A stretch of 64,000 nucleotides of DNA from Candidatus Latescibacterota bacterium (GTDB taxonomy: Bacteria; Latescibacterota; UBA2968; UBA8231), in the NCBI GenBank assembly GCA_965197905.1, contig CBDAOB010000005.1, positions 224,001-288,000 of the forward strand. Reading direction: 5' to 3'. Both the position numbers and the translations under genes were made by a program. Below are positions 15,170 through 33,976 of the stretch, in pieces. Positions within the stretch are counted from its first letter, which is position 1; each line of letters begins with the position of its first letter. The notes under the pieces are model-generated. The model searched no databases, had not been told where the DNA came from, and saw only the letters and a program-made list of their open reading frames with translations.

Positions 15170-15295
15170 GACTTTTCGTTGCGGTTGGGGTGAGACGAGA
15201 GTTGGCGGCACCTATAGTACGCGGGCCGCGACCCGGCTGCAAGCGGCGGTATTTACTTGAAAAAAGCGTCCAAACCGCATTCAATTATAGAGTCA

Positions 15296-15321
15296 GCTAT
15301 AGCGACAGCTGTCGCTATAGC
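15296..15321. promoter_or_regulatory. Perfect 26-bp palindrome in divergent promoter region (candidate operator)
   Basis: GCTATAGCGACAGCTGTCGCTATAGC equals its own reverse complement. Confidence 0.5.
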
Positions 15322-15369
15322 CGGGATTACACAGGGCTCAAATTATTTGGTCTGAGGCCGACGAAAATT

Positions 15370-18300
15370 ATGATGCGTACTGTTGCGACATTGCTGCTGA
15401 TCCTCGCGGTCTCCAGCTCGGGGGTCAGTGCCTCCGACCTGTTCGAGATCGGGTCTGCCGAAACGGTTGCCGGAGGCGGGACCGGCACCGGCGGGCCCGC
15501 CCGGGCGGCGAGCCTTCTGCCGCTGGGCGTGGCGGCTGGTCCAGGCGACGAAGCCGATCGTCTCTACATCGCCGATTCCGGGAACGGGCGTATTCGCAGA
15601 TTGGACGCCGACGGCCGAATGCACACGGTTGCCGGCAACGGCTCGACCTTTCCTCTCGACGCAGGTGGGCCGGCGCTGGACACGGCACTCTTGATGCCGG
15701 TAGAGGTGAAGATCGATCACCGCGGCCGCTTGCTGATCGCCGACGGCGAGGCCAATCGGATATTCCGCATGGGCGAGGATGGTTTCCTGTCGGTGGTAGC
15801 CGGGAACGGATCGCGAGGCGCGGCCCAGGATGGCAGCCTCGCCGACGCAGCCGAACTGGGCCGGCCACTCGGCTTCGTGCCGGATGGCTCCGGCGGCGTG
15901 TTTATCTCGGACACCGAGAACCATCGGCTGCTGCATGCGGATCGAGAGGGGATTCTGCGGGTGCTGGCTTCGGGGTTCGTGCGTCCCGCACGTCTTTTCC
16001 TGGATGCGGACGGCGCGCTGCTGGTGGCCGAAGCGGGCCGCAACGAGATCAAACGCCTCACCGTCGATCGCCTGGTAGAACCGCCCCGCGAACGTGTAAC
16101 TGTTCCGCAAGGTTACGTGGTTCGCACTCTTGCCGCGCTGCCGGTTCCCAAGCTACTCGAAGTGGTATATCATCGGGATGAGGGGCGCATATACATCACC
16201 CATGCCCGCGGCATCGAATGGATGCAGGACGGGGGTCGGCGCAACGCGTTTGCAGAATTCCTTGTCCCCAGATACAGCAGCACGTCTGCCAGGTCCGGTC
16301 TGATTGTGGGCACCGCTTCCTTCATCGATTGGCCGCAACCGCTGACCAACATTCGCCCGGACGGGGAATTGAATCCGTTGTATCTGCCGGTGCCTCTGTC
16401 CTTTGCCGGCGCCGACGCGATCACCCGAGGGCAAGGAGGCAACCTCGGGAACGATCTTTTCGTCCACCACGTCCGCGGCGAGGTTACCAGGGTCGCCGAG
16501 AACGAGATCGCGGCGTGGCCCTTTGCGCTGATCGAGCCGGGGACCGCAAAGATCCAGGCAATACCAGACGGCAGTCTCTACGCCGTTCTGAGCCGATCCC
16601 GGAGCCTGTGGAGGCTGACCGATCAGGATGGCGACGGCGAGATTCTGGGGCGAGAGGCACGGGTAGTAGCCGCGTTCGACCGTGAACCGGTGGCGCTGGC
16701 TTACGACAACGGACTCTTTGCCGCCACCGGGGACGGCCGCATCTACCAGATCACCGAAGGTGGAGAGATCTCCCTCTTCGCCTCGGGGTTTGCGGAGGCA
16801 GTCATCGATATCAGTCCGGCCCCGGGCGGTGGGCTGCTGGTTCTGGAGGGTGACGCCCTTGCCGGCCGCCTGCTGCTCCTCTCTCCCCCGCAGCCGGTGG
16901 TGGCGAGCTGGCCCAGCCAGGTCGATTACGGCCGCGTTCAACTCGGGAATCCCGTCGCCGCCTCCCTCATCCTTCGCAACGAGGGAGACCGCGGTGTGGA
17001 GTTGACGGCTAGTCCAGGTCCTGGAGTGCACGTTGGTTCCGAGCGTATCGTGCTTGCCGCGGGGGAACACCGCTCCGTCACCGCCGAGCTTGCGCCCTGG
17101 ATCAAAGGGCCCAACGCCAGCTACCTGGAATTCTCCGACGGCGAGGGCCAGCTGTTGCTATCGGTGCCACTGCTCGCCGAGGGCATCGCCCCGCGCTTGA
17201 GGGTGACCCCCCGCGTCGACTTCGGCACGGTTCTCCTGGGATCCAGAGTGCGACGATCCCTGGTGCTGCACAACGATGGCGAAGCGGGACTGCTCGTACG
17301 GCTGCAGCTGGCACCCGACCACGGTTTCCAGACCGGTGCCGCCGAGTACCCCGAGATTCCTCCTGGATCCTCTCTGACCGTCGACATCAGCTGGTTGCCC
17401 GAGCAGCGTCGCGCACCCACCGGTCAGCTACTGATCTCGAGCAACGATCCGGATCATCCCACCAGGACAGTCGAGCTCTCCGGCTTCGGTGGGATTCCAC
17501 AGCTCCGGGGACTCCCTGAATCGATTCAACTCGGTGCGGTTAAGGTCGGGGAGACCGAGCGCCAGAAACTGGAGTTGAAGAACGAAGGCGAGATGGATCT
17601 GTGGATCACCCAGATCCTGACCGGGGAGCGCGAGCTGAGGGTATCCCCGAGTCATCTGCAGATACCGCCGGGTGAAACCCGGTTGTTAGAGCTCACCTAT
17701 CGGCCCCGCGCTCACGGTGCGCTGGCGGGTGAGTTCTTTCTGCGCACCACCGACCCGAAGCATCGCGAGGTTCGCGTCGATTACGCCGGGCGGGGGTTGA
17801 GCTCCTTCCTGGCGTTGCCGGCAGGACCTCTGCTGTTCGCCGCCACGGCGTTGGGCCAGGTCAGCGAGCTTTCGTTCCCAATATCCAATGAGAGTTCCGC
17901 AGCCATCGCGATCCGGCAGGTCCAGACCAACAGCACTCAGTACCGGGTCACCGGTTTTCCGTCACGTCTTGAACCGGGAGCCGCTGGGTCGGTCGATGTC
18001 GAGTTTCGACCCGTGCGCCTGGGAGATGTCAGCGGGGAATTGACCCTGACTACGGAAGGTGCCGCCACCGAAAACCTGCGTATCGATCTGCAGGGCCGCA
18101 GTCATCCCGGTTCGCAACTCTTCCTCGAATGGGAGGGACCGTCGGTGGCTCCTGGATCCGAGTTCGAGGTAGTTTTGACCCTCGCCCATGCGTATCGGCT
18201 GGTGGGCATGGTGATCGAGCTCTCCTTGCCTCTCGAGCAGGTAGAGTTTCTAGGGGTGCGGTGGCCACGCAACGGACTCTTCGGAGACGAGGAACCGCCA

Positions 18301-19011
18301 CTGGTGATTCACCAGCAGACAGGACCCGACCGGGTCGAGTTCGGATTCTCCCAGACCGGCGTATCAGCCTTCGACGGAGTCAGCGGCGGTGGCGAGCTGG
18401 GGCGCCTGCGATTTCGGCTGCGCCCGGGCGCGCATGGAAAAATCGAGATTCGGGTCCCAAGGGCCGTCTACCGCTCGTCACAGGGCCGCGCCGACGATCT
18501 GCCCCAGGACGCCCGCGTCTCCGTGCCCGTGTTGCGGACCGGCGATTTCGATGCGGACGGCCGCGTGGATTTCGATGACTTCCTGGTGCTGATGGACAAC
18601 CTGGGCACCGACTCGTTGCCAGGGATACAGATCTACGACCTGAACGGTGACGGACAGGTATCGTTGGACGACGTCTTCGTACTCTTCGCCAACATGGAAT
18701 CGGCCGCCAAGGCGCTGGCGCGGGAACAGTTGCCGCTGAGCTTCGGTCTGAACGCCTATCCCAATCCATTCAATGCCGAACTCGCGCTCGAGTATCGGCT
18801 GCCGGGTGAACAACAGGTTCAGCTGGTGATCTTCAACACCCTCGGCCAGCGAGTCCGTCACCTGGAATCGGGGCGGCGGCAGCGCGGCATTCACCAGGTC
18901 ACCTGGGACGGCCGTGACGACTCGGGACGGGAGGTAACCTCCGGTCTTTACATCGCCACCCTCCGCGGCACCCGGGAACGCATCAGCAGGCGGCTGCTTC
19001 TCGTTCGCTGA
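15370..19011 (+). CDS. Exported multidomain protein: NHL repeats, Ig-like (ASH/choice-of-anchor D) repeats, cohesin-like, dockerin/EF-hand, FlgD-Ig C-terminal domain
   Basis: Signal peptide; LYIADSGNGRIRR NHL repeats; repeated DFG.V..G...L.L.N.G; GDFDADGRVDFDDF/DLNGDGQVSLDD; AYPNPFN..IFNTLGQ..WDG.D..G..SG.Y. Confidence 0.85.
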   Translation: MMRTVATLLLILAVSSSGVSASDLFEIGSAETVAGGGTGTGGPARAASLLPLGVAAGPGDEADRLYIADSGNGRIRRLDADGRMHTVAGNGSTFPLDAGGPALDTALLMPVEVKIDHRGRLLIADGEANRIFRMGEDGFLSVVAGNGSRGAAQDGSLADAAELGRPLGFVPDGSGGVFISDTENHRLLHADREGILRVLASGFVRPARLFLDADGALLVAEAGRNEIKRLTVDRLVEPPRERVTVPQGYVVRTLAALPVPKLLEVVYHRDEGRIYITHARGIEWMQDGGRRNAFAEFLVPRYSSTSARSGLIVGTASFIDWPQPLTNIRPDGELNPLYLPVPLSFAGADAITRGQGGNLGNDLFVHHVRGEVTRVAENEIAAWPFALIEPGTAKIQAIPDGSLYAVLSRSRSLWRLTDQDGDGEILGREARVVAAFDREPVALAYDNGLFAATGDGRIYQITEGGEISLFASGFAEAVIDISPAPGGGLLVLEGDALAGRLLLLSPPQPVVASWPSQVDYGRVQLGNPVAASLILRNEGDRGVELTASPGPGVHVGSERIVLAAGEHRSVTAELAPWIKGPNASYLEFSDGEGQLLLSVPLLAEGIAPRLRVTPRVDFGTVLLGSRVRRSLVLHNDGEAGLLVRLQLAPDHGFQTGAAEYPEIPPGSSLTVDISWLPEQRRAPTGQLLISSNDPDHPTRTVELSGFGGIPQLRGLPESIQLGAVKVGETERQKLELKNEGEMDLWITQILTGERELRVSPSHLQIPPGETRLLELTYRPRAHGALAGEFFLRTTDPKHREVRVDYAGRGLSSFLALPAGPLLFAATALGQVSELSFPISNESSAAIAIRQVQTNSTQYRVTGFPSRLEPGAAGSVDVEFRPVRLGDVSGELTLTTEGAATENLRIDLQGRSHPGSQLFLEWEGPSVAPGSEFEVVLTLAHAYRLVGMVIELSLPLEQVEFLGVRWPRNGLFGDEEPPLVIHQQTGPDRVEFGFSQTGVSAFDGVSGGGELGRLRFRLRPGAHGKIEIRVPRAVYRSSQGRADDLPQDARVSVPVLRTGDFDADGRVDFDDFLVLMDNLGTDSLPGIQIYDLNGDGQVSLDDVFVLFANMESAAKALAREQLPLSFGLNAYPNPFNAELALEYRLPGEQQVQLVIFNTLGQRVRHLESGRRQRGIHQVTWDGRDDSGREVTSGLYIATLRGTRERISRRLLLVR

Positions 19012-20692: not shown

Positions 20693-21541
20693 TCAGACAG
20701 AGCCGTTGAAGGTTATCTCCGAGCCTTCTCTGGCGGCCTCAACTTGGAAGCTCTCCGAGCGATAGCGCCCAACGATTTCGTCGATACCGGCGTCGGTGCG
20801 GTTGGGGTGATGATGGAACAACAGCAGGTGGCGGACCTCCGCTTCCCGGGCAACCTCCACCGCATGGTGATCGGAGGAATGTCCCCAACCTCGATGGGTT
20901 TCGTACTCAGCACTGCTGAAATGGGCGTCGTGGAGCAGCAGGTCCGCCTGCCGCGCAAGGGCCAGGGCGGGTTCCCGGTGATCGTCCTCCAGATATTCAA
21001 CGTCGGGTAGGTAGGCGATGGCAACACCTCCACTCTCGATCCTGAACCCCAGACAAACCGTCCCGGCGGCGTGGTTGACCTCGCGCGACTCCACCTGGAA
21101 GTCCCCTATCCGCATCGATTCCGACTGGACCTCCTTCGCACCGACCTTCGCTCCTGTGTCGTCCTCGAAGAAATCCGGGACCGGGCAGTAGACCGCGGTC
21201 ATCTGCACCCGCAGCAAGTCGCCGATCGAACGTCCGGTGCTGCCCTTGCCCCAAAGCGTGAAGCGGTTGCCGGCAATCAAGAACGGCTTGAAGAATGGCA
21301 ACCCTTGAATATGACCCCAGTGGGTGTGACTGACCAGGACGTGGCCGCTGCCACCGCCGTCACCAAACGGGGAATCGATCAGGGCGTCGCCCAGAGCGGG
21401 CAATCCCGTACCGCCGTCGAGGATCAGGACGGATGTCGGATCCAGCTCGATCAGGACGCAAGGCGTATTGCCTCCGTACACGCCATGAAGAGAGGATGGG
21501 GTAGGAATCGAACCCCTCGTACCCCACAACCTTATCTTCAA
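20693..21541 (-). CDS. MBL-fold metallo-hydrolase (RNase Z/phosphodiesterase-like) with variant HTHWGH motif
   Basis: WGTRGS, YGGNTPC, DGGTG, HTHWGHIQG, WGHS, LFHHHP. Confidence 0.85.
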   Translation of the reverse strand: MKIRLWGTRGSIPTPSSLHGVYGGNTPCVLIELDPTSVLILDGGTGLPALGDALIDSPFGDGGGSGHVLVSHTHWGHIQGLPFFKPFLIAGNRFTLWGKGSTGRSIGDLLRVQMTAVYCPVPDFFEDDTGAKVGAKEVQSESMRIGDFQVESREVNHAAGTVCLGFRIESGGVAIAYLPDVEYLEDDHREPALALARQADLLLHDAHFSSAEYETHRGWGHSSDHHAVEVAREAEVRHLLLFHHHPNRTDAGIDEIVGRYRSESFQVEAAREGSEITFNGSV

Positions 21542-21554
21542 TATCGGCTCTCTT

Positions 21555-22424
21555 TCACAGGTTCACTTCCAACCCTTCCATCGCCGCAACCAGCTCCAGC
21601 TGATTCGGAGATTCGGCTTTGTATCGGGCCAGGATCTCATCAATCGAGTCATCGCTGCGATCGGGCCGGTGGTGAAACAAGGCGACCCGCTTGGCGGCTG
21701 ATTCGACGCCAAGACGCAGGGCGTCTTCCGGCGTGCTGTGGCCAAAATCCGAGCGATACTCATCGGTAAGGAAATAAGTATCGCATACCATGAGATCAGA
21801 ACTGTGAGCTAGATCACGTGCGCCGCGACGTAGTTCCTCGATTCGTGACGATTTTTCCGGATCATCCGCCGGCATGTCGTCCCCCAGGAGCGTGTCGGTG
21901 TAGAGATCGGCGTCCGAAACATAGGAGAAGACCGAGTTACCGTTCTCGACTCGAAAACCGCCCGCAACCCCCGGGTGATTCAGGCGTTTACAGGTTACCC
22001 GGGTGGCGCCGACCTGGATGGTTTCTCCATCGGTGAGCTCGATAAACTCGAGCCGGGCTTTGACCTGATCGAGGGGTAGCGGAAAAAAGGGGGACTCCTG
22101 TTGAGCGCAGAAGATCTCCTTAAGGCTTTTCTGGCTGCGTCTCAGCGAGTAAACGTAGATCTGCGCAGAGGAGTCGAGCAGCGGACCGAAATGGGGGAAC
22201 CCCTGGATGTGATCCCAGTGGGTGTGACTGACCAACAAGTGTATGGTTGAAATCTTGCGACTCTGGAGGGACTTCCCAGCGGCGTATATCCCGGTTCCAG
22301 CATCGACGAGCAGGGTAGTGCCGTCGGCCTCGACTTCGAGACACGGGGTGTTGCCGCCGTACCGCAAGCAGTAGTCTGCCGCTACCGGATAGGAGCCGCG
22401 CACCCCCCAAAAGGTTACTTTCAT
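21555..22424 (-). CDS. MBL-fold metallo-hydrolase (RNase Z/phosphodiesterase-like)
   Basis: WGVRGS, YGGNTPC, DAGTG, canonical HTHWDHIQG, FGHS, LFHH; start moved to ATG 22424. Confidence 0.9.
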   Translation of the reverse strand: MKVTFWGVRGSYPVAADYCLRYGGNTPCLEVEADGTTLLVDAGTGIYAAGKSLQSRKISTIHLLVSHTHWDHIQGFPHFGPLLDSSAQIYVYSLRRSQKSLKEIFCAQQESPFFPLPLDQVKARLEFIELTDGETIQVGATRVTCKRLNHPGVAGGFRVENGNSVFSYVSDADLYTDTLLGDDMPADDPEKSSRIEELRRGARDLAHSSDLMVCDTYFLTDEYRSDFGHSTPEDALRLGVESAAKRVALFHHRPDRSDDSIDEILARYKAESPNQLELVAAMEGLEVNL

Positions 22425-22673
22425 GGTTGAATTTTGGGCGCGTGAAGGGGTCGAAAATAGTTCGTTATTTTCGTTATTATATGAAGGATGTTTAAAAACC
22501 ACAAGCATTTAGTTACATTTTTGGAGGTCTTTGAATCGGGCTAAAATAGGCAGTTTTGGAGGCGCGGAATGATGGGTTCCGCCGTCTGCGCAGATTTCAC
22601 ATAAGGTGGGATTTCCGTATATTTATTCCTCACCGAAAACCGAATCTACCGCACACCTGAACACAACCAGTGG

Positions 22674-23471
22674 GTGGCTACTATTTCGAAGAAAAAAAAA
22701 CCGAGAATTCGCGAAAAGAAACCACTGGGCGAGGAATCGAAGGACGGGGAGGCCGACCTCGACGAGTCAAGCAGCGGGCAACCGAAAACCGGCGTCCGCC
22801 AGTACCTCTCTTCGATTCTGATCGCCGTTGGCCTGGCGTTGCTCATCCGTACAACCGTCGTTCAGGCGTTTTTTATTCCTTCGGGCTCCATGGAGGACAC
22901 CCTCTATATCGGCGACTACCTGTTGGCTAACAAATTCGTCTATGGCGCACCGATCGACATCATCGGCACGAGTATCACTTTGTTTCGTTTGCCCGGGCTG
23001 CGCGACCCTAGTCCCGGGGATATCGTCATTTTTAGGTCTCCCATCGAGGAGGACAAGGACCTGATCAAGCGGTGCGTCGCCGTCGGGGGGCAACGGGTGG
23101 AGGTCGTCGGCAAGGAACTCTACGTCAACGGCAAGCGGTTTCCCGATCCACCCGGTGCGAAGTTCGTCAAAGGGGGCATGGACAGCTACGGCCCTATCGT
23201 CGTGCCGCAAGACCACTATTTCATGATGGGAGACAACCGCGACAACAGCCTCGACAGTCGCGTATTCGGTCCCGTTCCCAACGGACTGGTCAAGGGCAAA
23301 GCGATGAACGTTTATTGGTCTATAAAGCCGGACAAATGCACCCGCTTCAACAGGAACGATTGCACACCAAACTATTCCGGACTGTCTTCGCTGCCTAAGG
23401 TAGTTGGAAAGTTTCTCTGGCGCTTGCCTGGCCGCGTTCGCTATAGCCACCTGGGAGATGTCATCCTGTAA
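22674..23471 (+). CDS. lepB: Signal peptidase I
   Basis: TM helix, IPSGSM (catalytic Ser), LIKR (catalytic Lys), MGDNRDNSLDSR. Confidence 0.95.
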   Translation: MATISKKKKPRIREKKPLGEESKDGEADLDESSSGQPKTGVRQYLSSILIAVGLALLIRTTVVQAFFIPSGSMEDTLYIGDYLLANKFVYGAPIDIIGTSITLFRLPGLRDPSPGDIVIFRSPIEEDKDLIKRCVAVGGQRVEVVGKELYVNGKRFPDPPGAKFVKGGMDSYGPIVVPQDHYFMMGDNRDNSLDSRVFGPVPNGLVKGKAMNVYWSIKPDKCTRFNRNDCTPNYSGLSSLPKVVGKFLWRLPGRVRYSHLGDVIL

Positions 23472-23481
23472 CGGTACGATT

Positions 23482-25218
23482 ATGGAGAGAGACGACCTAC
23501 ACCACGATCCCGACGAAGAGCTCGAGGAGTACGACGACTACAGGGAGTACGAGGAAGATAACAGCCTGCAGGAGGAGTTCGACGCCGAGCCGTTGCGGTT
23601 GGTGGACAAGCTTCTGTCGCTGGCCCCCGAGAAGGATCCGGCTCGCCCCCTGCTGTACGGGTTGCGGCGCCAGCTCATGGAGCGCGAGATCACCTTCCAG
23701 GAGGCCCGTCGCAGCCTCGTGGAGCTGGAAGCAGCGCTGGAAAAGGTGACCTCCCCCTCCAATCGCGTCGGTATCTACCTTGGTTCGCCGAGAGACGAAA
23801 TCGCCACGGTTTTCGTGGGCGGTGCAGAATATTACGCCAACATCGATCCACGGGTGGATGTCGCCGACCTGGAGGTGGGGACGCGGATCTTGATCAACGA
23901 AGCGTACGCCGTCGTCGGCGTTCTAGGTTTCAATCCCGCCGGCCCGATCGCCAAGATCGGCGATCTCTTCGACGACGGACGACTGCGCCTTACTCAGGAA
24001 CACGGCTCCCAGGATCTGGTGGTGGAGCGCTCAGCTTCCCTGGCCGATGCGGATCTCAAGAAGGGAGACGAGGTCCGCGTGGATCCTGGATTCAAGGTGG
24101 CCCTCGAACGCATTGCCGCCGGCGATGGCAAGGAATACTTCCTCGAGAATGTGCCGGTCATGGACTGGTCCAGCATTGGCGGTCAGGAAGAGGCGATCCA
24201 GGCGATCCGCGACACCATCGAGCTGCCGGCGTTGCATCCGGAGCTGTTCGAGCGCTTCCAATACAGCACCCCGAAGGGGTTTCTGCTCTACGGCCCCCCC
24301 GGCTGCGGCAAGACCCTCATCGGCAAAGCGACCGCCTACAATCTGGTGCGCCACATCCGCGAGGCAGAAGGTGAGGATGTAAAAGAGTATTTCATGCACA
24401 TCAAGGGCCCCGAAATCCTCAACATGTGGCTCGGAGAAACCGAACGCATGGTGCGGGAGATCTTTGCCCAGGCCCGGGAGAAACGGAAGGAGGGGTTTCT
24501 ACCTTTCGTCTTCATCGACGAGGCGGAGTCAATTCTAGGCATCCGGCGCTCCATGAGGTCGCACCACATCGCCAACACTGTGGTGCCCATGTTCTGCACC
24601 GAAATGGACGGCATCGAGTCGTTACACGATGTCGTGATCATTCTCGCCTCCAACCGCCACGACCTGATCGATCCCGCCATTCTTCGGCCGGGCCGAATCG
24701 ACCGCAAGATCAAGGTGGAGCGTCCGGACAGGGACGCCTCAAGGGCGATTCTGGAAATCTACCTCACGTCCAATCTGCCTCTAGATCTCGAGGAATCGAA
24801 GGCGTTCGAGAACCCCGAGGCGGCCCGCCAGGCGTTGATCGACGCGACGGTCGATCATTTCTTCGCGCGGGACGAAGAGACCAAGTTTCTCGAGGTCACG
24901 CTGCGCAGCGGCCGAGTAGAGGTCCTGAACTTTTGCGATCTCTCAAGCGGGGCCATCATCGACTCGATGGTGCAGCGCGCCAAGGAAACCGCGGTCAAAC
25001 GGGCCATCGCCAGCAAGGATGCCGACGCCGGTTTGCGCCGCGAGGATCTCATGCAGGCGGTGCGTGCCGAATTCCGCGAAAGCGAAGTATTCCCCCCCAC
25101 GGACACGGTCGAAGACTGGCTCAAGCTACTCGACTACGATCCGGACAATGTGGTACGGGTCCTGCCCGTACGATCCCAGGAAAAGACAGCGGACACCCCA
25201 GCCAGCAAGGTCATCTGA
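23482..25218 (+). CDS. arc: Proteasome-associated AAA+ ATPase (ARC/Mpa family)
   Basis: N-terminal coiled coil and OB domains, GPPGCGKT, KGPEILNMWLGE, FIDEAE, AILRPGRID; first gene of a proteasome operon. Confidence 0.9.
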   Translation: MERDDLHHDPDEELEEYDDYREYEEDNSLQEEFDAEPLRLVDKLLSLAPEKDPARPLLYGLRRQLMEREITFQEARRSLVELEAALEKVTSPSNRVGIYLGSPRDEIATVFVGGAEYYANIDPRVDVADLEVGTRILINEAYAVVGVLGFNPAGPIAKIGDLFDDGRLRLTQEHGSQDLVVERSASLADADLKKGDEVRVDPGFKVALERIAAGDGKEYFLENVPVMDWSSIGGQEEAIQAIRDTIELPALHPELFERFQYSTPKGFLLYGPPGCGKTLIGKATAYNLVRHIREAEGEDVKEYFMHIKGPEILNMWLGETERMVREIFAQAREKRKEGFLPFVFIDEAESILGIRRSMRSHHIANTVVPMFCTEMDGIESLHDVVIILASNRHDLIDPAILRPGRIDRKIKVERPDRDASRAILEIYLTSNLPLDLEESKAFENPEAARQALIDATVDHFFARDEETKFLEVTLRSGRVEVLNFCDLSSGAIIDSMVQRAKETAVKRAIASKDADAGLRREDLMQAVRAEFRESEVFPPTDTVEDWLKLLDYDPDNVVRVLPVRSQEKTADTPASKVI

Positions 25219-25232
25219 GCTCTGAGCGTTCG

Positions 25233-26759
25233 ATGAACCGACTCGTGGGGCTGGAAACCGAATACGGCATCCAGGTGGATGACGTGGAGGAGATGGACGT
25301 GGTGGTGGAGTCCATGGAGCTGATCCGCTGTTTCCTCCACGAGGAATTCGTCGCCCGCTGGGACTACGCCCGTGAGAATCCGCGCCAGGACATGCGTGGG
25401 TTCGAGGTAGACGAGCTGCTCAATGACGTGGATGAGACCGTCCATCTCCAGCGCGATCGCAAACGGCAGATTCCGCTGAAAGAGCTCAAGAGCGACCTCA
25501 TTATTCGCAACGGGGCGCGGCTCTACAACGATCACACTCACCCCGAATACTCAACCCCCGAGTGCCTGTCGCTGATCGATCTAGCCACCTACGACCGCGC
25601 CGGCGAACAGATCCTGAACGGGTGTGCCAAACAACGCACCGCAACCCGGGATGGGGGAGTGGTCCGGCTCTACAAGAACAACACCGACTTCGAGGGACAT
25701 AGCTACGGGTGTCACGAAAACTACCTGATCGGGCGGGCGATCCCCTTCCAGCAGGTCATCGACGGCTTGCTGCCGTTCGTGGTTACCCGTCCGATCTTTG
25801 CCGGCGCCGGCAAGGTGGGCGTCGAAAACGTTACCGGCGGCTCGCTGCAGCCCTACCAGCTGTCCCAGCGCGCCGATTTCTTCGAGACGATCGCCAGTGT
25901 CGACACCATGCACCGACGTCCGCTGGTGAATACCCGCGATGAACCCCACGCCGACCGAAACCGTTACCGCCGCCTGCATATGATCACCGGCGATGCCAAC
26001 ATGTCCGAGTACATCACCGCTCTGAAGGTGGGAACGATGGGGTTGGTTCTGGAGCTGTTGGAGGCCGGAAAGTTGCCGTCCTACGAGCTCGCGGATCCGA
26101 TCGGGGCGCACAAGGAGATCTCCCGCGATCTCTCTAGGGCTTGGCCGGTCCAGCTCACCGATCGCTCTTTTACCACCGCCCTGGAGATTCAGCACGCCTT
26201 GCAGAAAGCGGCTCTCTCGTGCTTCGCGGGCAGGGACGAGGAGACCGATTGGGCCCTGGCTCAGTGGGGGCAGGTGCTGGACGATCTCGGGGGCGATCTT
26301 GCACCGCTGATCGGCCGCTGTGACTGGGTGACCAAGAAGTGGCTGCTCGACGCTTTCGTCGAGGCGGAGGGTTTGGACTGGGGGAACCCCGATCACCGGA
26401 CCTGGCTGCAAAGCCAGGACCTGGAATACCATAATATCGATCCGGAAGAAGGCCTCTTCCTCATGCTGGAACAACAGGGAGAGGTTGTTCGCCTGACGGA
26501 AGAAGGAGGTATCCTCAGGGCGACTGTGGAACCGCCGGCAGGTACCCGGGCCTATTTTCGCGGTGTCTGCCTCACCCGATTTGCGGAAAAAATCACCGCC
26601 TTGAACTGGGACAGCATCGAATTCGACCTGGACGCCGGTCGCTGGGTGCTCGATCTGAAAGATTGCGTGGATGCGGAAACGGCGGCTTATTATAATGAGA
26701 GTTTGGACCAGGTAGACAGCGTCGAGGCATTAAGGTCCAAACTCGAGCGTGCCGATTAA
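25233..26759 (+). CDS. dop: Dop-like depupylase/deamidase (PafA2)
   Basis: GLETEYG, Dop-loop RWDYARENPRQDMRGF, NGARLYNDHTHPEYSTPEC, GHSYGCHENY, RPLVNTRDEPHA. Confidence 0.9.
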   Translation: MNRLVGLETEYGIQVDDVEEMDVVVESMELIRCFLHEEFVARWDYARENPRQDMRGFEVDELLNDVDETVHLQRDRKRQIPLKELKSDLIIRNGARLYNDHTHPEYSTPECLSLIDLATYDRAGEQILNGCAKQRTATRDGGVVRLYKNNTDFEGHSYGCHENYLIGRAIPFQQVIDGLLPFVVTRPIFAGAGKVGVENVTGGSLQPYQLSQRADFFETIASVDTMHRRPLVNTRDEPHADRNRYRRLHMITGDANMSEYITALKVGTMGLVLELLEAGKLPSYELADPIGAHKEISRDLSRAWPVQLTDRSFTTALEIQHALQKAALSCFAGRDEETDWALAQWGQVLDDLGGDLAPLIGRCDWVTKKWLLDAFVEAEGLDWGNPDHRTWLQSQDLEYHNIDPEEGLFLMLEQQGEVVRLTEEGGILRATVEPPAGTRAYFRGVCLTRFAEKITALNWDSIEFDLDAGRWVLDLKDCVDAETAAYYNESLDQVDSVEALRSKLERAD

Positions 26760-26776
26760 CTAGATAGGAGGGCGCT

Positions 26777-26974
26777 ATGATAGACAAAAACATAGAGTTA
26801 CGGGATCGCGCTCCGCGGCCGACGAAACCACTCGGCGGTGGTGACGACGCCGACCAGGACGACGGTCCCCGACGGCCCAAGGTCGAACGCCCGCAAACCG
26901 ATGACATCTTGCGCCGTATGCGGCGAGTGGATCCGAATCAGGCCAGACGGTATCGCCAGCGAACCGGTCAGTAG
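26777..26974 (+). CDS. ubact: UBact, Pup-like protein modifier of Gram-negative bacteria
   Basis: 65 aa, disordered N-terminus, C-terminal MRRVDPNQARRYRQRTGQ matching the UBact R[TS]G[EQ] terminus; AGGAGG RBS; sits between dop and prcB. Confidence 0.9.
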   Translation: MIDKNIELRDRAPRPTKPLGGGDDADQDDGPRRPKVERPQTDDILRRMRRVDPNQARRYRQRTGQ

Positions 26975-26975
26975 C

Positions 26976-27752
26976 GTGGAGAGTTGCGATTTTCTGTCTC
27001 TGCTCAAAGAGCAGGGACATCTTCCCCGCGATCCAGTCCCCGCGGGGCCCCACGGAGCCGAGTTCGACACCACCGAAGGCACGACGATCCTGGCGATCAG
27101 ATACCGAGAGGGAGTTCTCATAGCCGGAGATCGCAGAGCCACCATGGGCAATACCGTCGTCTATGACCGGGCCGACAAGGTCCTGTCCATCGACGACGAC
27201 GCGGTGATGGCGCTCGCCGGGTCGCCGGCAATCGCCTACGAAATGGCGCGTCTCCTCGAAATCTCCTTTCAACATTATCGCCGAAGTCAGCTCCAGGTTC
27301 TCAGCCTCGATGGCAAACTGCGCATCCTGTCCCGCCTGCTGCGTGACAATCTTTCGCTGGCGCTGCAGGGCATTGGCGCCGTGGTTCCCATTTTCGCGGC
27401 GTTCGACATCCACGCAAACGAAGGCAAGATCTATTTCTACGATGTGCTCGGGGCGCAGTTCGAATCGGTGGATTTCTGCACCATCGGGTCCGGATCCCCC
27501 ATCATCCGCGGCGCCCTCTACCATCATAACCGCTGGCAGGATCGTCTGGCGGAGATGGACGAATCCGCCTCTCTGGAACTGGTGTTGAAGATGCTGGAAA
27601 CCGCCGCCGAGTTCGACACAGCCACCGGCGGACTGAACACCCGGTCCCGCATCTTTCCGCAAGTTCGGCGCATCACCGCCGCCGGTATCGAGACCGTTGC
27701 CGAAGACGTTCTCGAGTCCCTGTACCACTCTGAACTCCAGCCTCAAACCTGA
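26976..27752 (+). CDS. prcB: 20S proteasome beta subunit (Ntn hydrolase)
   Basis: 35-aa propeptide ending TEG|TTILA (Thr1), AGDRRAT.GN, KV, GSGS. Confidence 0.9.
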   Translation: MESCDFLSLLKEQGHLPRDPVPAGPHGAEFDTTEGTTILAIRYREGVLIAGDRRATMGNTVVYDRADKVLSIDDDAVMALAGSPAIAYEMARLLEISFQHYRRSQLQVLSLDGKLRILSRLLRDNLSLALQGIGAVVPIFAAFDIHANEGKIYFYDVLGAQFESVDFCTIGSGSPIIRGALYHHNRWQDRLAEMDESASLELVLKMLETAAEFDTATGGLNTRSRIFPQVRRITAAGIETVAEDVLESLYHSELQPQT

Positions 27753-27803
27753 CCTCGGGGTTCTCTGATGGGATCCAGCTCCTTATCCATGCCCGGGTCT
27801 CGC

Positions 27804-27830
27804 CCGGCGCCGGCGCCGGCGCCGCCGGCG
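27804..27830. repeat. GC microsatellite (CCGGCG)3-CCG-CCGGCG within GGGTC..GACCC hairpin
   Basis: Read directly in the prcB-prcA spacer. Confidence 0.6.
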
Positions 27831-27860
27831 ACCCAATGCTAGCGAGCGCGCGGAGATATC

Positions 27861-28619
27861 ATGCTTGAAGAGCCCTACCGCTGGGTCGAAGCGATACAGA
27901 ATCGCCGCGAATATCTGGATGATCAGCTGCGGGGTGCCAGTCCGGTGGTCGGCCTTTCTTACGAGCATGGGATCCTGCTGCTGACCACCACACCCGGTCC
28001 ACGTAAGCTGTTCGAGGTCTACAACGACCTGAGCTTCGCCGCGATCGGCCATCCCGCCGATATCGAAAAGCTGCGCAAGGCGGTCATCGACATCGCCCAT
28101 CTGGAGGCGTTCAACTTCTCGGCCAAGGACGTCTCGCTTCAGCGGCTGGTAAGTTTCGGCATCGGCCCGCTGGTCAAAGCGGCCTTCGACGAGATCTTCC
28201 GCTCCCCGTTTACCGCCCGGGTGCTCATGGCGGAACTGGATCCCCAGACTGGCCGCGATCGGTTTTTCGTGATCGACGCGGATGGATCCTTCCTGGGTCA
28301 CGAGCAAGAGGCAGCGGTAGCCGGATCCGACGCCAGCGTGGACGCCATATTGGAATCACTAGGTAACGGGGGTGCTGCCGCGTGGTCGCGGACCGAGGCG
28401 CTGCATGCCGGTTTACAGGCATGGGCAGCCGGTCGCCTCAATCTCGAAAGCGAATCCACAACCCTCCCAGACCAGGGGGCGGTTGAAGCCTGTTTGCGTG
28501 AAGTGCTGGAATCCCAACGGATCGAAGTGGCGGTACTCGACCGTACCCGACCGGGCAAAAGCAAGTTCACGCTTCTATCCAACGAAGAAATCGACGCCGC
28601 CCTGGCGCCGTACCGGTAG
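27861..28619 (+). CDS. prcA: 20S proteasome alpha subunit
   Basis: ASPVVGL.Y..GILL, KLFEVYN...FAAIG, ELD, EVAVLDRTR; position between prcB and ligase. Confidence 0.85.
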   Translation: MLEEPYRWVEAIQNRREYLDDQLRGASPVVGLSYEHGILLLTTTPGPRKLFEVYNDLSFAAIGHPADIEKLRKAVIDIAHLEAFNFSAKDVSLQRLVSFGIGPLVKAAFDEIFRSPFTARVLMAELDPQTGRDRFFVIDADGSFLGHEQEAAVAGSDASVDAILESLGNGGAAAWSRTEALHAGLQAWAAGRLNLESESTTLPDQGAVEACLREVLESQRIEVAVLDRTRPGKSKFTLLSNEEIDAALAPYR

Positions 28620-28627
28620 CAGACAAG

Positions 28628-30049
28628 ATGGACGAGCGCATCTTCGGAATCGAAGTGGAATTCGGATGTCTACCGCCCGACGCCGACCCGTTTTTGAGCC
28701 CGGACTTCATCTCGGTCAAGGCGAAGGACTGCATCTTCTACCGCGAGGGATTGGGAATCGTTGATATTCATTACCGTGGAAGGGACGAACCCCCGGGCAA
28801 TGGAGGGTTTCTGTTCAACGGCGGGCGGATCTACATCGACATGGGGCACGTCGAATACGCCACGCCCGAATGCCAGGGTCTGTTCGATCTGGTAGCGGCA
28901 GATCGGGCCGGCGAAATCATCGTTCAACGGGCGCTTGAGCAACTCGGTCTCGCCGAAACGGCTTCCTTCTTCAAGAACAACATCGATCATTACACCGGCG
29001 CCACCTTCGGTTGTCACGAAAACTATCTTGTGCGCCGCGACGTGCCGTTTTCCCAGGTTCTGTTGCCCGCCATGCTGCCGTTTTTCGTTACCCGACAGAT
29101 TTTCGCGGGTGCCGGTCGCGTTGGTTGTCACACGGACATCTTCGAATATGGAGGCAATGAGGAGGAGGGGGTCGCGTATCAGCTTTCTCAGCGCGCCGAC
29201 CACATCGTAACCGAGATCTATCAGTGGATCCAGTTCAGTCGGGCGATCATAAACACCCGTGACGAGCCGCTGGCTGATTGGGGGCTCTACCGCCGACTGC
29301 ACCTTCTGGTTGGCGACTCGAACATGTCCGAGTACGCCACCGCGCTCAAGGTCGGCACAACGGCGCTGATTCTGCGGTTGATCGAGGAGCGGGTGGTTCC
29401 GCCCATATCCCTGTTGGACCCCGTCCAGGCCATTCGCGACATCTCCCGCGATCTCAACTTCCGCTGGGAGGTGCAGCTCGAGGACGGCAGCTACACGACG
29501 GCGACCGAGATTCAGCGCGCCTATCTGGATCTGGCTGAACGCTATCTGCGCGGCAAGGACCCCGAGGGCGACTGGGTCCTGGACGAATGGCGGTTCGTCG
29601 TCGACGGCCTCGATTTCGACCCCATGAGCCTCATCGACCGAGTGGACTGGGTTACCAAGAAGTGGCTGCTGGAATCCTTCATGCGTTCCGAGGACCTGGA
29701 GTGGAACGACCCGGCGATCCAGAGCCTCGATCTTGAATACCACAACCTCAATATGGACCGGGGTCTCTACTTCGACCTGCGGCGCCGCGGCATGACCAAA
29801 CGCGTGGTCGACGACGACCAGGTGAACATGGCGCTGGTCACGCCGCCGCAGGACACCCGGGCAAAGGCGCGGTCAGTGGTGATGCGCGAGCTCACCGGTC
29901 AGAAAGCCCGCTACGTGATCGATTGGGACTCGATTTACGTCGAAGATGAGAAGTATCTCAGCCTGGATGATCCTTTTCTGGTGTACGACATCGAAACCCG
30001 GGAGTTCATCGACGACTGCCGCAACGGGGCGCCCCCAGAGGCATATTAG
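28628..30049 (+). CDS. pafA: PafA-like Pup/UBact-protein ligase
   Basis: FGIEVEFG, NGGRIYIDMGHVEYATPEC, TFGCHENY, RAIINTRDEPLA, RRLHLLVGDSNMS, PPQDTRAKARS; no Dop loop. Confidence 0.9.
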   Translation: MDERIFGIEVEFGCLPPDADPFLSPDFISVKAKDCIFYREGLGIVDIHYRGRDEPPGNGGFLFNGGRIYIDMGHVEYATPECQGLFDLVAADRAGEIIVQRALEQLGLAETASFFKNNIDHYTGATFGCHENYLVRRDVPFSQVLLPAMLPFFVTRQIFAGAGRVGCHTDIFEYGGNEEEGVAYQLSQRADHIVTEIYQWIQFSRAIINTRDEPLADWGLYRRLHLLVGDSNMSEYATALKVGTTALILRLIEERVVPPISLLDPVQAIRDISRDLNFRWEVQLEDGSYTTATEIQRAYLDLAERYLRGKDPEGDWVLDEWRFVVDGLDFDPMSLIDRVDWVTKKWLLESFMRSEDLEWNDPAIQSLDLEYHNLNMDRGLYFDLRRRGMTKRVVDDDQVNMALVTPPQDTRAKARSVVMRELTGQKARYVIDWDSIYVEDEKYLSLDDPFLVYDIETREFIDDCRNGAPPEAY

Positions 30050-30583: not shown

Positions 30584-33500
30584 TTGTTCCAGGTTTCTCC
30601 GTCCGTAGTATCCCGCCCTACCTTCCTAGTCATTCTTGTTTTCCTGATTGTTTCTTTTGCCGTTGTCCGCGCCGATGAGTTTGTATGCGCCGGGACGTTG
30701 CCGGCGTCGGTGAAACCCCTGGCGCAATCCTCGGGTACCCTGAACGCCCTGGTTGTGTTCGCCAAGTTCCAGGGGGAAGCAGCCGGCGACGATGCGGCGC
30801 CGGCATGGGCCGTGGATCTCTTCAATCCCGGACTGCCGGGCAGTTTCGCCCATTTCTACGACGAGGCTTCCCGTGGCCTTCTGCTGGTCCGTGGCTCGGT
30901 AGTACCGAAACGCTACAGCTCACTGCGGCCGGCTTCCGACTACGTCGCTGAGCGCTCGGGAGTTCAGGGTCGCTTCGGTCAGTTCAACCTCGAAATCCTC
31001 GAGCAGATGGACCCCGATGTCGACCTCGGTCTGTTCGACAACGACGGTGGTGATGGGGTGCCGAATTCTGGGGACGATGATGGCTATGTGGACGTGGTCT
31101 TCGTCAATCTATTGACCGTGCCGCAGAATTTCTTCATCTCCGGCGCGACCGGTTTTGCCTCGCTGGGGCTGGATACCGATTTCATCAGCGACGATGCCGC
31201 CGCCGGCGGTGGACGGATTCGGATTCGCAGTCGTTTCAGCGGCTTCGGTGGCACCACCCAACGCGGTCATGTTTTCTCGGTCACCGCATCCACCATGTGT
31301 CACGAATTCGGCCACGTGCTCGGCTTGCCCGACCTGTTCGATCAGTCATCCGTCTCCATGGGCGATGAGCTCGATCCCGAGCAGGACAGCGCCGGCATCG
31401 GGAAATGGGGACTGATGGGTCTCGGTACGTTGGGATGGGGGATCGAGGACGGTCCAAACGCCTTCTCAGCCTGGTCGCTGGCGCAGTTGGGTTGGGTCGA
31501 GGTGGTGGAGATCAGCAGGAGTCGTCCTGGTCTGGTCATCGAAGACATCGATGCCGGCGGCGTGGTCTACAAGATCCCGATCGGATACGACGAGTACCTG
31601 CTGCTGGAGAATCGCCAAGCCTCGGAATCGTATTACAACCGCAATGTGCCGGGAACGGGGCTGCTGGTCTGGCATGTGGACGACCAGGCGGACAACGACG
31701 AGGAGCGCCACAAGCAGGTCGACCTGGTCTGCGCGGATGGTCTCTACAGCGATCGCGGTTTCCCGGGGTCGCTGCCCGATCCGCGGGCCGGCCGCGACAA
31801 CCTCGACTTCTGGTCCCGCGACACTGCTTACGCGGAGGCGCGCAACGGCAATCAAGGTGATGCAACGGATCCGTTCGACGGGGTGGAGCGGACCCGCCTT
31901 GCGTTCGACACCAATCCGGCGGTCGGTGCCCACACCGGATTCAGGCGCGATTTGCCGCTGGGCATTGTGCTGGAGAAGATTCGCTCGCAGGGCTCAAACC
32001 TGGTGGCGGATGTGCTGCGTCAACCTCTGCCGGGACATGTGCAGGCCGATACCACCTGGTCTGGAGATGTGGTGTTGGATGGCGATCTCGTGATCGAACC
32101 CGGCGCGAGGTTGTCTTTGGATCCGGGCACCACGGTGCGCTTCGCCACCAGCGACAGTCGGCGGACGGGATTCTCACGCGAGCATTGCGAACTCATCGCC
32201 TACGGCGAGCTGCTACTGCCGGCAGGCGGCGAGAGCCCCGCCCGTTTTCTGTCGGCTGCCGCGCAACCGGGCGCCGCCGATTGGCAAGGTATCTTCCTGC
32301 TCAACGGACAGGAGTTCGACGAGACGAGTGCCGTGCTGGAAAACGCGGCGTTCGATCTGGTGCGCTCGCACCTTCCCCAGGGGATCACCCGATGGTCCGG
32401 CCGCAGAAACATGCCATTTGATCTCGTGATTCCGCCCGGGGCGGAGCTGGTGGTGGAGGCGGGCAGCAGGCTCGGTTTCAGCTCGATGGATATGGGCCGC
32501 AGCGGGCAGTTCGCCGAGCTGACAGAGCTATTAGTGGAGGGCCGGCTGGAGGTGGACGCTAGCGTTGCTCAGCCGGCGATCTTCACCCTGGCGTCGGGGC
32601 GGCGGGATTCCCTTTGGTACGGGGTGCATCTGAAGGACGGCTCCGAGCTGATAGCCCGCAACCTGAACGCCGAGCAGGGTGTAGTAACCATCGGTGGCGA
32701 AGTGGGCGCAGGGAGCACCCTGTTGCTTGAGGACAGCCGTCTGTCCACCAGCGCCGGGTACGGCTTGCGTCTCACCGTCAATGGTACTGTCGAACTGAAC
32801 CGCAGCTCGATTACCCGGCATCCCTTGCAGGCGATCTACGTCGAGGGCAGCGGTACCTTGTTGTTGCACAATTCCGCCGTCGCCGGAAATGGGCAGGAAG
32901 GGATTTTCATTGGCAACTGCTCTTTGGAAGCGATCAACAGCCGGATCGAACAGAACGGGCTCCTCGACGCCAACGACCCGCGTTCAGGTTTGACGGCGGT
33001 GGGCGGCCGCGGTCAGCGCATAGAATTGTGGAACAGCACCGTGGCGAGCAATCCGCTGCATGGGCTGGATCTCACCCAATGGCAAGGAAGGTTGGAGCTG
33101 CATTCCACCGAAATCAGCGCCAACCGTCGGTCGGGCTTGCAGGCGGCGGGGCTCGAGATACTGGTGTTCGAGGATGTTGCGATCGAACGCAACCTGGGTA
33201 TCGGCGCCATGGTCAGCGGTTCGCCTCTCGAGATCTGGACCACGAGCTTCGCCGACAATATCGGCCCCGGGCTGGTCCTCGGCCCCGGTTCCACCGGACT
33301 GATCGAGATGGGTGAATTCATCAACAACTCAGGCATCGAGATGACCGATGTGGAAGGAGTAATGGTGCGCAGCAGCAGGTTCGAGAACTCGGCGCTCGCC
33401 CTCAGCTCCGTCGACTCCGCTCCCGCGCTCTACGGCAATCGGTTTACCAACAATCTGACCGCGGTGGAAATCGCAGGCGACGCAGTGCCAGCCCTGGTGA

Positions 33501-33976
33501 CCCGCAACAGCTTCCTCGACAATCAGCTTGCGATCGCCAACCGCACCTCACTGCCCTTGGCGGCCGCGGGGAACTTCTGGGGCACCGCTGACAGTACCGA
33601 GATCGCCGGCCTGGTCACTGGGCGGGTAGACTTTGCGCCGTTTCTGGATTCTGAGCCCGACCTGACTGCCATCGCCGGACCCGAGGAGGCCACACCCCTG
33701 CGTCATTCCATGGACGCTCCATTCCCTAATCCGTTCAACGCACAGACGGTGATACGGTTCGATCTCGCCGCACCGCAGGCTGTCACCCTGGAGGTTTTCG
33801 ATATCCTGGGCAAACGGGTGCGAACGCTTGCGGTTGGAAACCTAGGTGCGGGGGTTCACCAGGAGGTGTGGGATGGGAAAGATCAGCGAGGTCGGACACT
33901 GGGCAGCGGTGTCTATCTCATGCGATTGACGGTGAGCGGCATCCCGGTGACCCGCCGGTCCGTTCTTATTCGTTAG
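30584..33976 (+). CDS. M6 family (immune inhibitor A-like) metalloprotease with right-handed beta-helix and FlgD-Ig C-terminus
   Basis: Signal peptide, DFGLFDNDG.DG.PNSGDDDGYVD, HEFGHVLGLPDL, W.LM..G, LLENRQ, GLLVWHVD, FPNPFN tail. Confidence 0.9.
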   Translation: MFQVSPSVVSRPTFLVILVFLIVSFAVVRADEFVCAGTLPASVKPLAQSSGTLNALVVFAKFQGEAAGDDAAPAWAVDLFNPGLPGSFAHFYDEASRGLLLVRGSVVPKRYSSLRPASDYVAERSGVQGRFGQFNLEILEQMDPDVDLGLFDNDGGDGVPNSGDDDGYVDVVFVNLLTVPQNFFISGATGFASLGLDTDFISDDAAAGGGRIRIRSRFSGFGGTTQRGHVFSVTASTMCHEFGHVLGLPDLFDQSSVSMGDELDPEQDSAGIGKWGLMGLGTLGWGIEDGPNAFSAWSLAQLGWVEVVEISRSRPGLVIEDIDAGGVVYKIPIGYDEYLLLENRQASESYYNRNVPGTGLLVWHVDDQADNDEERHKQVDLVCADGLYSDRGFPGSLPDPRAGRDNLDFWSRDTAYAEARNGNQGDATDPFDGVERTRLAFDTNPAVGAHTGFRRDLPLGIVLEKIRSQGSNLVADVLRQPLPGHVQADTTWSGDVVLDGDLVIEPGARLSLDPGTTVRFATSDSRRTGFSREHCELIAYGELLLPAGGESPARFLSAAAQPGAADWQGIFLLNGQEFDETSAVLENAAFDLVRSHLPQGITRWSGRRNMPFDLVIPPGAELVVEAGSRLGFSSMDMGRSGQFAELTELLVEGRLEVDASVAQPAIFTLASGRRDSLWYGVHLKDGSELIARNLNAEQGVVTIGGEVGAGSTLLLEDSRLSTSAGYGLRLTVNGTVELNRSSITRHPLQAIYVEGSGTLLLHNSAVAGNGQEGIFIGNCSLEAINSRIEQNGLLDANDPRSGLTAVGGRGQRIELWNSTVASNPLHGLDLTQWQGRLELHSTEISANRRSGLQAAGLEILVFEDVAIERNLGIGAMVSGSPLEIWTTSFADNIGPGLVLGPGSTGLIEMGEFINNSGIEMTDVEGVMVRSSRFENSALALSSVDSAPALYGNRFTNNLTAVEIAGDAVPALVTRNSFLDNQLAIANRTSLPLAAAGNFWGTADSTEIAGLVTGRVDFAPFLDSEPDLTAIAGPEEATPLRHSMDAPFPNPFNAQTVIRFDLAAPQAVTLEVFDILGKRVRTLAVGNLGAGVHQEVWDGKDQRGRTLGSGVYLMRLTVSGIPVTRRSVLIR

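Follow-up and report, generated by a model that had tools for sequence, protein, structure and literature searches.

Does the gene run at positions 23482-30049 of a 64-kb window from Candidatus Latescibacterota bacterium (assembly GCA_965197905.1, contig CBDAOB010000005.1, positions 224,001 to 288,000) encode a complete UBact tagging and proteasome system, and would such a system work in the manner of pupylation? The first part is answered by gene content, gene order, family membership, intact catalytic residues and class-wide conservation: the locus is a real, intact and ordinary member of a known, already named system. As for the second, we consider it likely that the set works like pupylation, from deamidation of the tag by Dop through to degradation by the 20S proteasome.

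Six genes form one compact UBact operon

Six open reading frames (ORFs) lie on the same strand without internal stops, in the order arc-dop-ubact-prcB-prcA-pafA and with gaps of 14, 17, 1, 108 and 8 nucleotides (nt) from arc to pafA; the contiguous operon described in the initial annotation was borne out in both its order and its exact span. The first gene, arc (23482-25218, +), encodes a 578-residue ARC/Mpa-type AAA+ ATPase (TIGR03689, PF17758, PF16450 and PF00004), and dop (25233-26759, +) a 508-residue deamidase/de-conjugase recognized by PF03136, its PDB match and its place in the tree. The 65-residue modifier, with the C-terminus RTGQ, is encoded by ubact (26777-26974, +; NF033388 and PF20513), 5 nt ahead of whose ATG an AGGAGG sequence (26766-26771, +) reads as a ribosome-binding-like site. 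One base past the ubact stop, at an inferred GTG start codon, begins the 20S beta subunit gene prcB (26976-27752, +; TIGR03690 and PF00227), the translation of which shows a 35-residue propeptide and then Thr1 (codon at 27081), with Asp17 and Lys33, as the earlier reading of a Thr1 beta subunit had implied. The 252-residue 20S alpha subunit is encoded by prcA (27861-28619, +; TIGR03691, PF00227 and alignments), and the last gene, at the pafA position (28628-30049, +), encodes a 473-residue enzyme that is likely the UBact ligase (PF03136, TIGR03686/TIGR03688, alignments and trees). The GhExE motifs attributed to both ligase-fold enzymes are intact, as GLETE in the first and GIEVE in the second.

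In profile searches, the operon genes matched their families with E-values between 1e-20 (UBact) and 1e-150, and because the same gene order recurs across related loci, the assignment is not a matter of chance. The operon is single-copy in the genome (6.69 Mb, 91% complete). A scan for promoters and terminators stayed at chance level (3 versus 2.3 and 7 versus 7.5). The 108-nt prcB-prcA gap contains a run of GC-only, CCGGCG-type repeats (27800-27836).

The operon is the norm for its class

Of 41 relatives sampled, 37 carry UBact. Across the phylum it was present in 122 of 153 genomes, with 119 of 124 positive within the class (four families) and 2 of 28 outside it. The exact six-gene order was found in 100 of 115 fetched related loci; two of the other 15 carry a duplicated tag or a split last gene, and 13 hold a contiguous subset in unchanged order. 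After removal of duplicates, 85 of 97 loci contain all six genes. NCBI already names the tags of close relatives 'ubiquitin-like protein UBact [Candidatus Latescibacterota bacterium]'. Given this class-wide occurrence, constant gene order and existing naming, the locus represents the norm for its class. The window copy passes both UBact models, has its tag between dop and prcB and is accompanied by arc, prcA and pafA, and it shows no feature that distinguishes it from the UBact family.

The names of the nearest relatives of the Dop protein support the diderm host of Fibrobacteres-Chlorobi-Bacteroidetes (FCB) type that had been proposed from the sequence, the host here being inferred from those relatives; such a host is Gram-negative and non-actinobacterial, as expected for UBact. 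Among the best 80 of 115 confirmed loci, the named Dop loci comprised 60 from Latescibacterota/Latescibacteria, 13 from Gemmatimonad- lineages, one from Handelsmanbacteria and one from Planctomycetota, and the best match was 93% identical and from Latescibacterota. That the operon is a functionless relic, acquired by horizontal transfer and now in decay, is so improbable as to be nearly negligible: all frames are intact, nearly every genome of the class carries UBact, the catalytic and interface residues are invariant, and the guanine-cytosine content of the operon region is similar to that of the remaining window.

A few relatives depart from the common layout. At one locus (L031:5202-7588, genome G028), dop and ubact are separated by an inserted DNA methylase gene and an MjaI-type restriction gene; the normal tag is followed by a second UBact-like ORF (51 bits) that ends in RDGGVN, without a terminal Q or E. 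Two further genomes, G094 (L276 and L277) and G111, have two UBact matches each, with 6% contamination in both; one copy in G094 has no operon gene in the 12.5 kb covered.

The UBact tag is basic and shares the Q/E dimorphism of Pup

Model searches confirmed the 65-residue ORF as UBact, with scores well above both cut-offs (NF033388, 73.9 bits versus 35; PF20513, 73.1 bits versus 27.8). Searched at E<=1, the genome gave no hit to the Pup model PF05639, while a Corynebacterium control did match, and no PDB relative of UBact was found. UBact was reportedly named by Lehmann et al. in 2017, who are said to have proposed it from genomes, with the motif definition R[ST]G[EQ] and a lineage list that included Handelsmanbacteria; the C-terminus RTGQ agrees with that definition. 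The initial annotation had stressed this ending as opposed to the GG[EQ] of Pup. The RTGQ end stands for the window copy, with the qualification that relatives may have either Q or E as the last residue: with duplicates removed, 48 of 93 tags end in RTGE and 45 in RTGQ. As dop is in view at 92 of the 93 tag loci, this interchange mirrors that of PupQ and PupE, and we count it in favour of a pupylation-like route.

The last 26 residues of the tag carry a net charge of +5 here and of +4 or +5 at 89 of 93 class loci, compared with -9 over the last 30 residues of Pup, for which a single sequence served as the reference. All 64 metagenome tags were positive as well, a count that is not independent, since basic residues and an R[ST]G[EQ] end were required by the pattern used to find them. 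The UBact tag is also four residues shorter than Pup between its two predicted helices.

UBact had no match among 50,697 GenBank phages. Two viral scans yielded one match in all, a stand-alone UBact ORF on a 70-kb IMG/VR phage contig (L148:7980-8156, +; PF20513, 66.7 bits) that ends in RSGQ and is flanked by portal and head-morphogenesis genes, with no match to arc, dop, pafA or prc in the 16 kb covered. It is possible that this ORF acts as a decoy or a tag donor towards a host UBact system.

A probable route analogous to pupylation

The actinobacterial Pup system consists of the same six families in the same order, and it shares with the UBact system the catalytic residues of Dop, the PafA core, the AAA module and the 20S beta subunit, as well as the Q/E dimorphism of the tag. 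By analogy, Dop would convert the terminal Gln of the tag into Glu, and, at the expense of ATP, the downstream enzyme would attach this Glu to lysines of target proteins through an isopeptide bond (leaving a TGE remnant of +287.112 Da); the tagged proteins would be recruited to the coiled coils of ARC and unfolded by ARC into the 20S chamber, and Dop would recycle the tag. Some general points count against this reading. All five large operon proteins score below the actinobacterial NCBIfam cut-offs, and the comparison of the UBact profile with that of Pup was not significant (probability 0.3%). Moreover, the literature searched, with most subscription journals outside its coverage, yielded no experimental UBact study. 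The remaining objections concern the last enzyme of the operon and the docking of ARC.

The two ligase-fold enzymes differ in their hydrolytic features

The upstream enzyme matched PF03136 with 503 bits and TIGR03688 with 427.2 bits (cut-off 492.3), versus 341.5 for TIGR03686, and its best PDB match was Dop (360 bits, versus 258 for PafA). In the alignment it keeps the equivalents of Dop E8, E10, W47, R90, Y92, D94, H155, T217, R227, H231, H241 and W453, which are named catalytic or diagnostic in PMC8599861 and PMC7947786; following the definitions given there, it possesses the Dop-loop Trp, the alpha-loop Thr217 and the catalytic Asp94. By its sequence, this enzyme is clearly Dop-like. The Dop-loop motif was seen in most upstream enzymes (44 of 51) and in none of 32 downstream ones.

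The downstream enzyme is closer to the boundary. It matched PF03136 with 462.4 bits, and its scores for TIGR03686 (363.8; cut-off 551.3) and TIGR03688 (358.0) were near-equal and both under cut-off, so that a tree was needed to support the PafA label that the initial annotation had given it. The enzyme lacks the Dop loop and the equivalents of T217 and H231, all of which serve hydrolysis, and it retains PafA D64, H188, S200, R201, P210 and D439 together with the site-2 arginines R137, R207 and R218. Its AlphaFold model had a mean predicted local distance difference test (pLDDT) score of 66.8, with residues 162-232 below 50, and Foldseek aligned it to Dop and PafA alike (template modelling score 0.66-0.69).

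On the opposing side, solved structures of Dop matched the downstream enzyme better than those of PafA did (288-293 versus 253-255 bits), and among the 22 rows in Table 1 of PMC7947786, just 5 have a PafA-type residue, by our own reading. PafA depends on two alpha-loop threonines for full activity, and the enzyme has neither of them, as its loop reads WIQFSR where PafA has ATTRSR. The alpha-loop, HIVTEIYQWIQFSR, is near-invariant in 46 relatives; compared with actinobacterial PafA, it is without the TT pair and carries an invariant HYRGRDEPPGNGG insert. A W-x-Q motif is present in 29 of the 32 downstream enzymes. Furthermore, the elements through which PafA contacts its substrate, namely the SS hinge, V65, T197, T198, R199 and R442 (PafA-PanB contact list from bioRxiv 10.64898/2026.04.10.717840), are replaced, as are basic sites 1 and 3, with site 2 kept (sites as defined in PMC10465538). 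With its substrate face altered at most PafA contacts and at these two sites, the ligase is predicted to have a different substrate range.

These replacements, with near-invariant loops in their place, would also suit a narrow adaptor-like ligase with one or a few targets, or a second hydrolase, that arose by a separate duplication within UBact systems. We regard this alternative as very unlikely. The missing Dop loop, T217 and H231 equivalents speak against a second hydrolase, the genome contains two PF03136 genes, both in this operon, and no further ligase-fold gene, and the core of the alignment places the downstream enzyme with PafA, as set out below. A narrower substrate range is in itself compatible with a pupylation-like route as well.

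A segment that groups by tag type

In a FastTree analysis of 131 rows, which included 51 of 122 length-filtered representatives (from 150; all 26 motif-classified ones and 25 chosen at random), the upstream and downstream UBact enzymes fell into separate groups with a support of 100. IQ-TREE was run on 31 rows under LG+G4. On the full alignment it paired the two UBact enzyme groups weakly (79/76), a further objection to PafA orthology and the pairing that a separate duplication would produce; PafA orthology was seen in 26% of the bootstrap trees, and approximately unbiased (AU) tests rejected neither pairing, with p 0.276 for PafA orthology on the full alignment and p 0.153 without residues 296-404 (numbered as in the window PafA). 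Column-wise quartet counts of 0, 1 and 1 columns were uninformative. When residues 296-404 were removed, Dop separated from PafA across the Pup and UBact systems (93/90), and when they were analysed alone, the UBact enzymes separated from the Pup enzymes (97/97); the segment was picked after the alignment had been seen, and labels for the Pup-type representatives came from a motif, save for three named references. These trees are suggestive of a mosaic, in which the segment groups by tag type and the rest by function. Convergence on the tag and gene conversion between paralogues would both be sufficient to produce it.

A sliding scan of UBact-minus-Pup charge showed a peak common to both enzymes at residues 355-384 (-5.1 in Dop and -3.4 in PafA), against a background in which the whole-protein charge of the PafA groups differs too (-3.7 versus -1.9 per 100). 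Residues 345-404 presumably line the tag-binding groove of the PafA-Pup structure. We predict that the recognition surfaces of the enzymes co-evolved with the basic tag through an acidic shift in this one segment.

ARC may dock through a tyrosine-free tail

ARC scored 468.4 bits against TIGR03689 (cut-off 504.75), and its best PDB match was Mpa (E 2e-106). It comprises an N-terminal helical hairpin with a coiled-coil helix, two OB domains and the AAA module; the hairpin sets it apart from actinobacterial Mpa/ARC. In the monomer model (mean pLDDT 69), helices span residues 36-47 and 55-89, the last strand spans 557-562 and the tail at 566-578 falls below 50. The acidic N-terminal 36 residues (net -17) were considered as a tag receptor and rejected, the stretch being variable among relatives.

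The C-terminus of ARC reads ...SKVI, without the GQYL that ends both actinobacterial ARC references. Tails with a V or I end and no penultimate Tyr were found at 92 of 92 class loci and 32 of 32 metagenome loci (124 unique; the metagenome proteins are 47-70% identical to the window ARC). The tail is 8-10 residues shorter than its actinobacterial counterparts, and its terminal VI aligns near their RAI/RSI. Measured from the DYxP motif, it has 27-30 residues in 91 of 92 loci, with the aliphatic end conserved behind a variable linker. Since residues 566-578 are disordered in the model, a flexible docking tail fits better than a structural strand.

In Mpa, a second contact with the 20S pairs the hairpin ANGDK (501-505) with basic H0 residues, according to PMC8755798. 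The window ARC has RSGR (475-478) in this hairpin loop, and the hairpin starts with R or K at 85 of 92 class loci (7 unmatched by the pattern) and at all 32 metagenome loci, in a comparison with two actinobacterial references that both read ANGDK. On the alpha subunit side, PrcA (TIGR03691, 71.1 bits, under the cut-off of 139.05) keeps the N-terminal nucleophile (Ntn) fold, the H0 helix and the pocket Lys49, and its H0 has D20/D21 where the PDB PrcA chain has R21/K22 (PMC8755798 names R22). D or E occupies H0 position 21 in two sets, in 86 of 88 sequences of one and in 49 of 51 metagenome sequences, compared with Lys in the PDB chain. The pocket Lys motif was matched at 85 of 90 loci and was visible by eye at 4 more. 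PrcB scored 182.3 bits against TIGR03690, narrowly under the cut-off of 191.9. Judged from these residues, the contact between the ARC hairpin and the alpha-subunit H0 looks charge-swapped, and we predict that ARC docks through a flexible tail with two aliphatic end residues plus this swapped contact, which together would replace GQYL.

The docking evidence also holds the last objections. GQYL is called essential for Mpa in mycobacteria in PMC12288473, the hairpin contact is described as insufficient for docking by itself in PMC8755798, and 20 of the 51 metagenome sequences have Arg at H0 position 20. Tagging might accordingly be real and yet uncoupled from degradation, with ARC serving as a stand-alone unfoldase or complex-disassembler and the 20S working with another activator or alone. 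Tails that all lack the penultimate Tyr and stop some 8-10 residues before the Mpa-type end are what such uncoupling would lead one to expect, and a divergent hairpin is also found in proteasome-less corynebacteria. We nevertheless hold it to be unlikely: even distant lineages keep arc and prcBA together in a single, constant operon, tail length and the aliphatic end are conserved, unlike the preceding linker, which is variable and disordered in the model, and the pocket Lys and the complementary hairpin/H0 swap are kept. In addition, the genome (91% complete) has no match to Bpa or PAC2, although the Bpa control was silent too.

Neighbouring and related genes

The signal peptidase I gene lepB (22674-23471, +; TIGR02227, 147.5 bits) ends 10 nt 5' of arc and is possibly co-transcribed with the operon. 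Among the 92 unique loci at which arc is complete, 49 have lepB directly 5' of it, and lepB is no fixed part of the UBact system. An upstream lepB is found at 40 of the 45 loci with a Q-ending tag and at 6 of the 48 with an E-ending one, an association most likely due to shared ancestry. Further upstream, two tandem genes of the metallo-beta-lactamase fold (20693-22508, -) gave weak matches to RNase Z and cyclic-nucleotide phosphodiesterase, all under cut-off. Two large secreted-looking proteins (15190-19011, +, and 30584-33976, -) end in similar 'FPNPFN...' domains, which we take to be a sorting-type domain of FCB bacteria, and a HEFGH metalloprotease motif is present in the second protein. 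The sole other proteasome-fold gene of the genome lies in an apparent topA-xerC-hslV-hslU run (G000:C4:1058876-1063965, L281; translation reading and Pfam), and the organism thus appears to possess HslUV alongside its 20S proteasome.

UBact as a possible second tagging code

PMC7947786 describes Dop/PafA homologues as sporadic in NC10, Armatimonadetes, Verrucomicrobia, Nitrospinae and others, and its alignments may already show UBact-type enzymes. UBact is not mentioned in the first 300,000 characters of PMC7203096, nor did the literature searched mention family-wide differences from Pup in the ARC tail, charge, hairpin or ligase loop. In these parts, in the tag end (RTG[QE]), in the swapped hairpin/H0 charges and in the gathering of the genes into one compact run, the UBact system differs from the actinobacterial one, and we predict from the sequences that the two are non-interchangeable. 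More broadly, and with somewhat less than even confidence, we propose that UBact might be a second, orthogonal tag-and-destroy code, in which a basic tag would fit acidified enzyme grooves, a rebuilt ligase face would select other substrates, and a Val/Ile-COOH tail devoid of the HbYX/GQYL tyrosine would open the 20S together with the charge-swapped hairpin, with no cross-reaction with Pup.

The locus offers a clean, single-copy and complete kit for a first biochemical test of UBact. If the predicted differences prove true, a proteasome gated without any penultimate tyrosine would depart from the rule stated for bacterial and eukaryotic activators, and a Pup-orthogonal pair of ligase and tag would be usable as a second protein-labelling tool.

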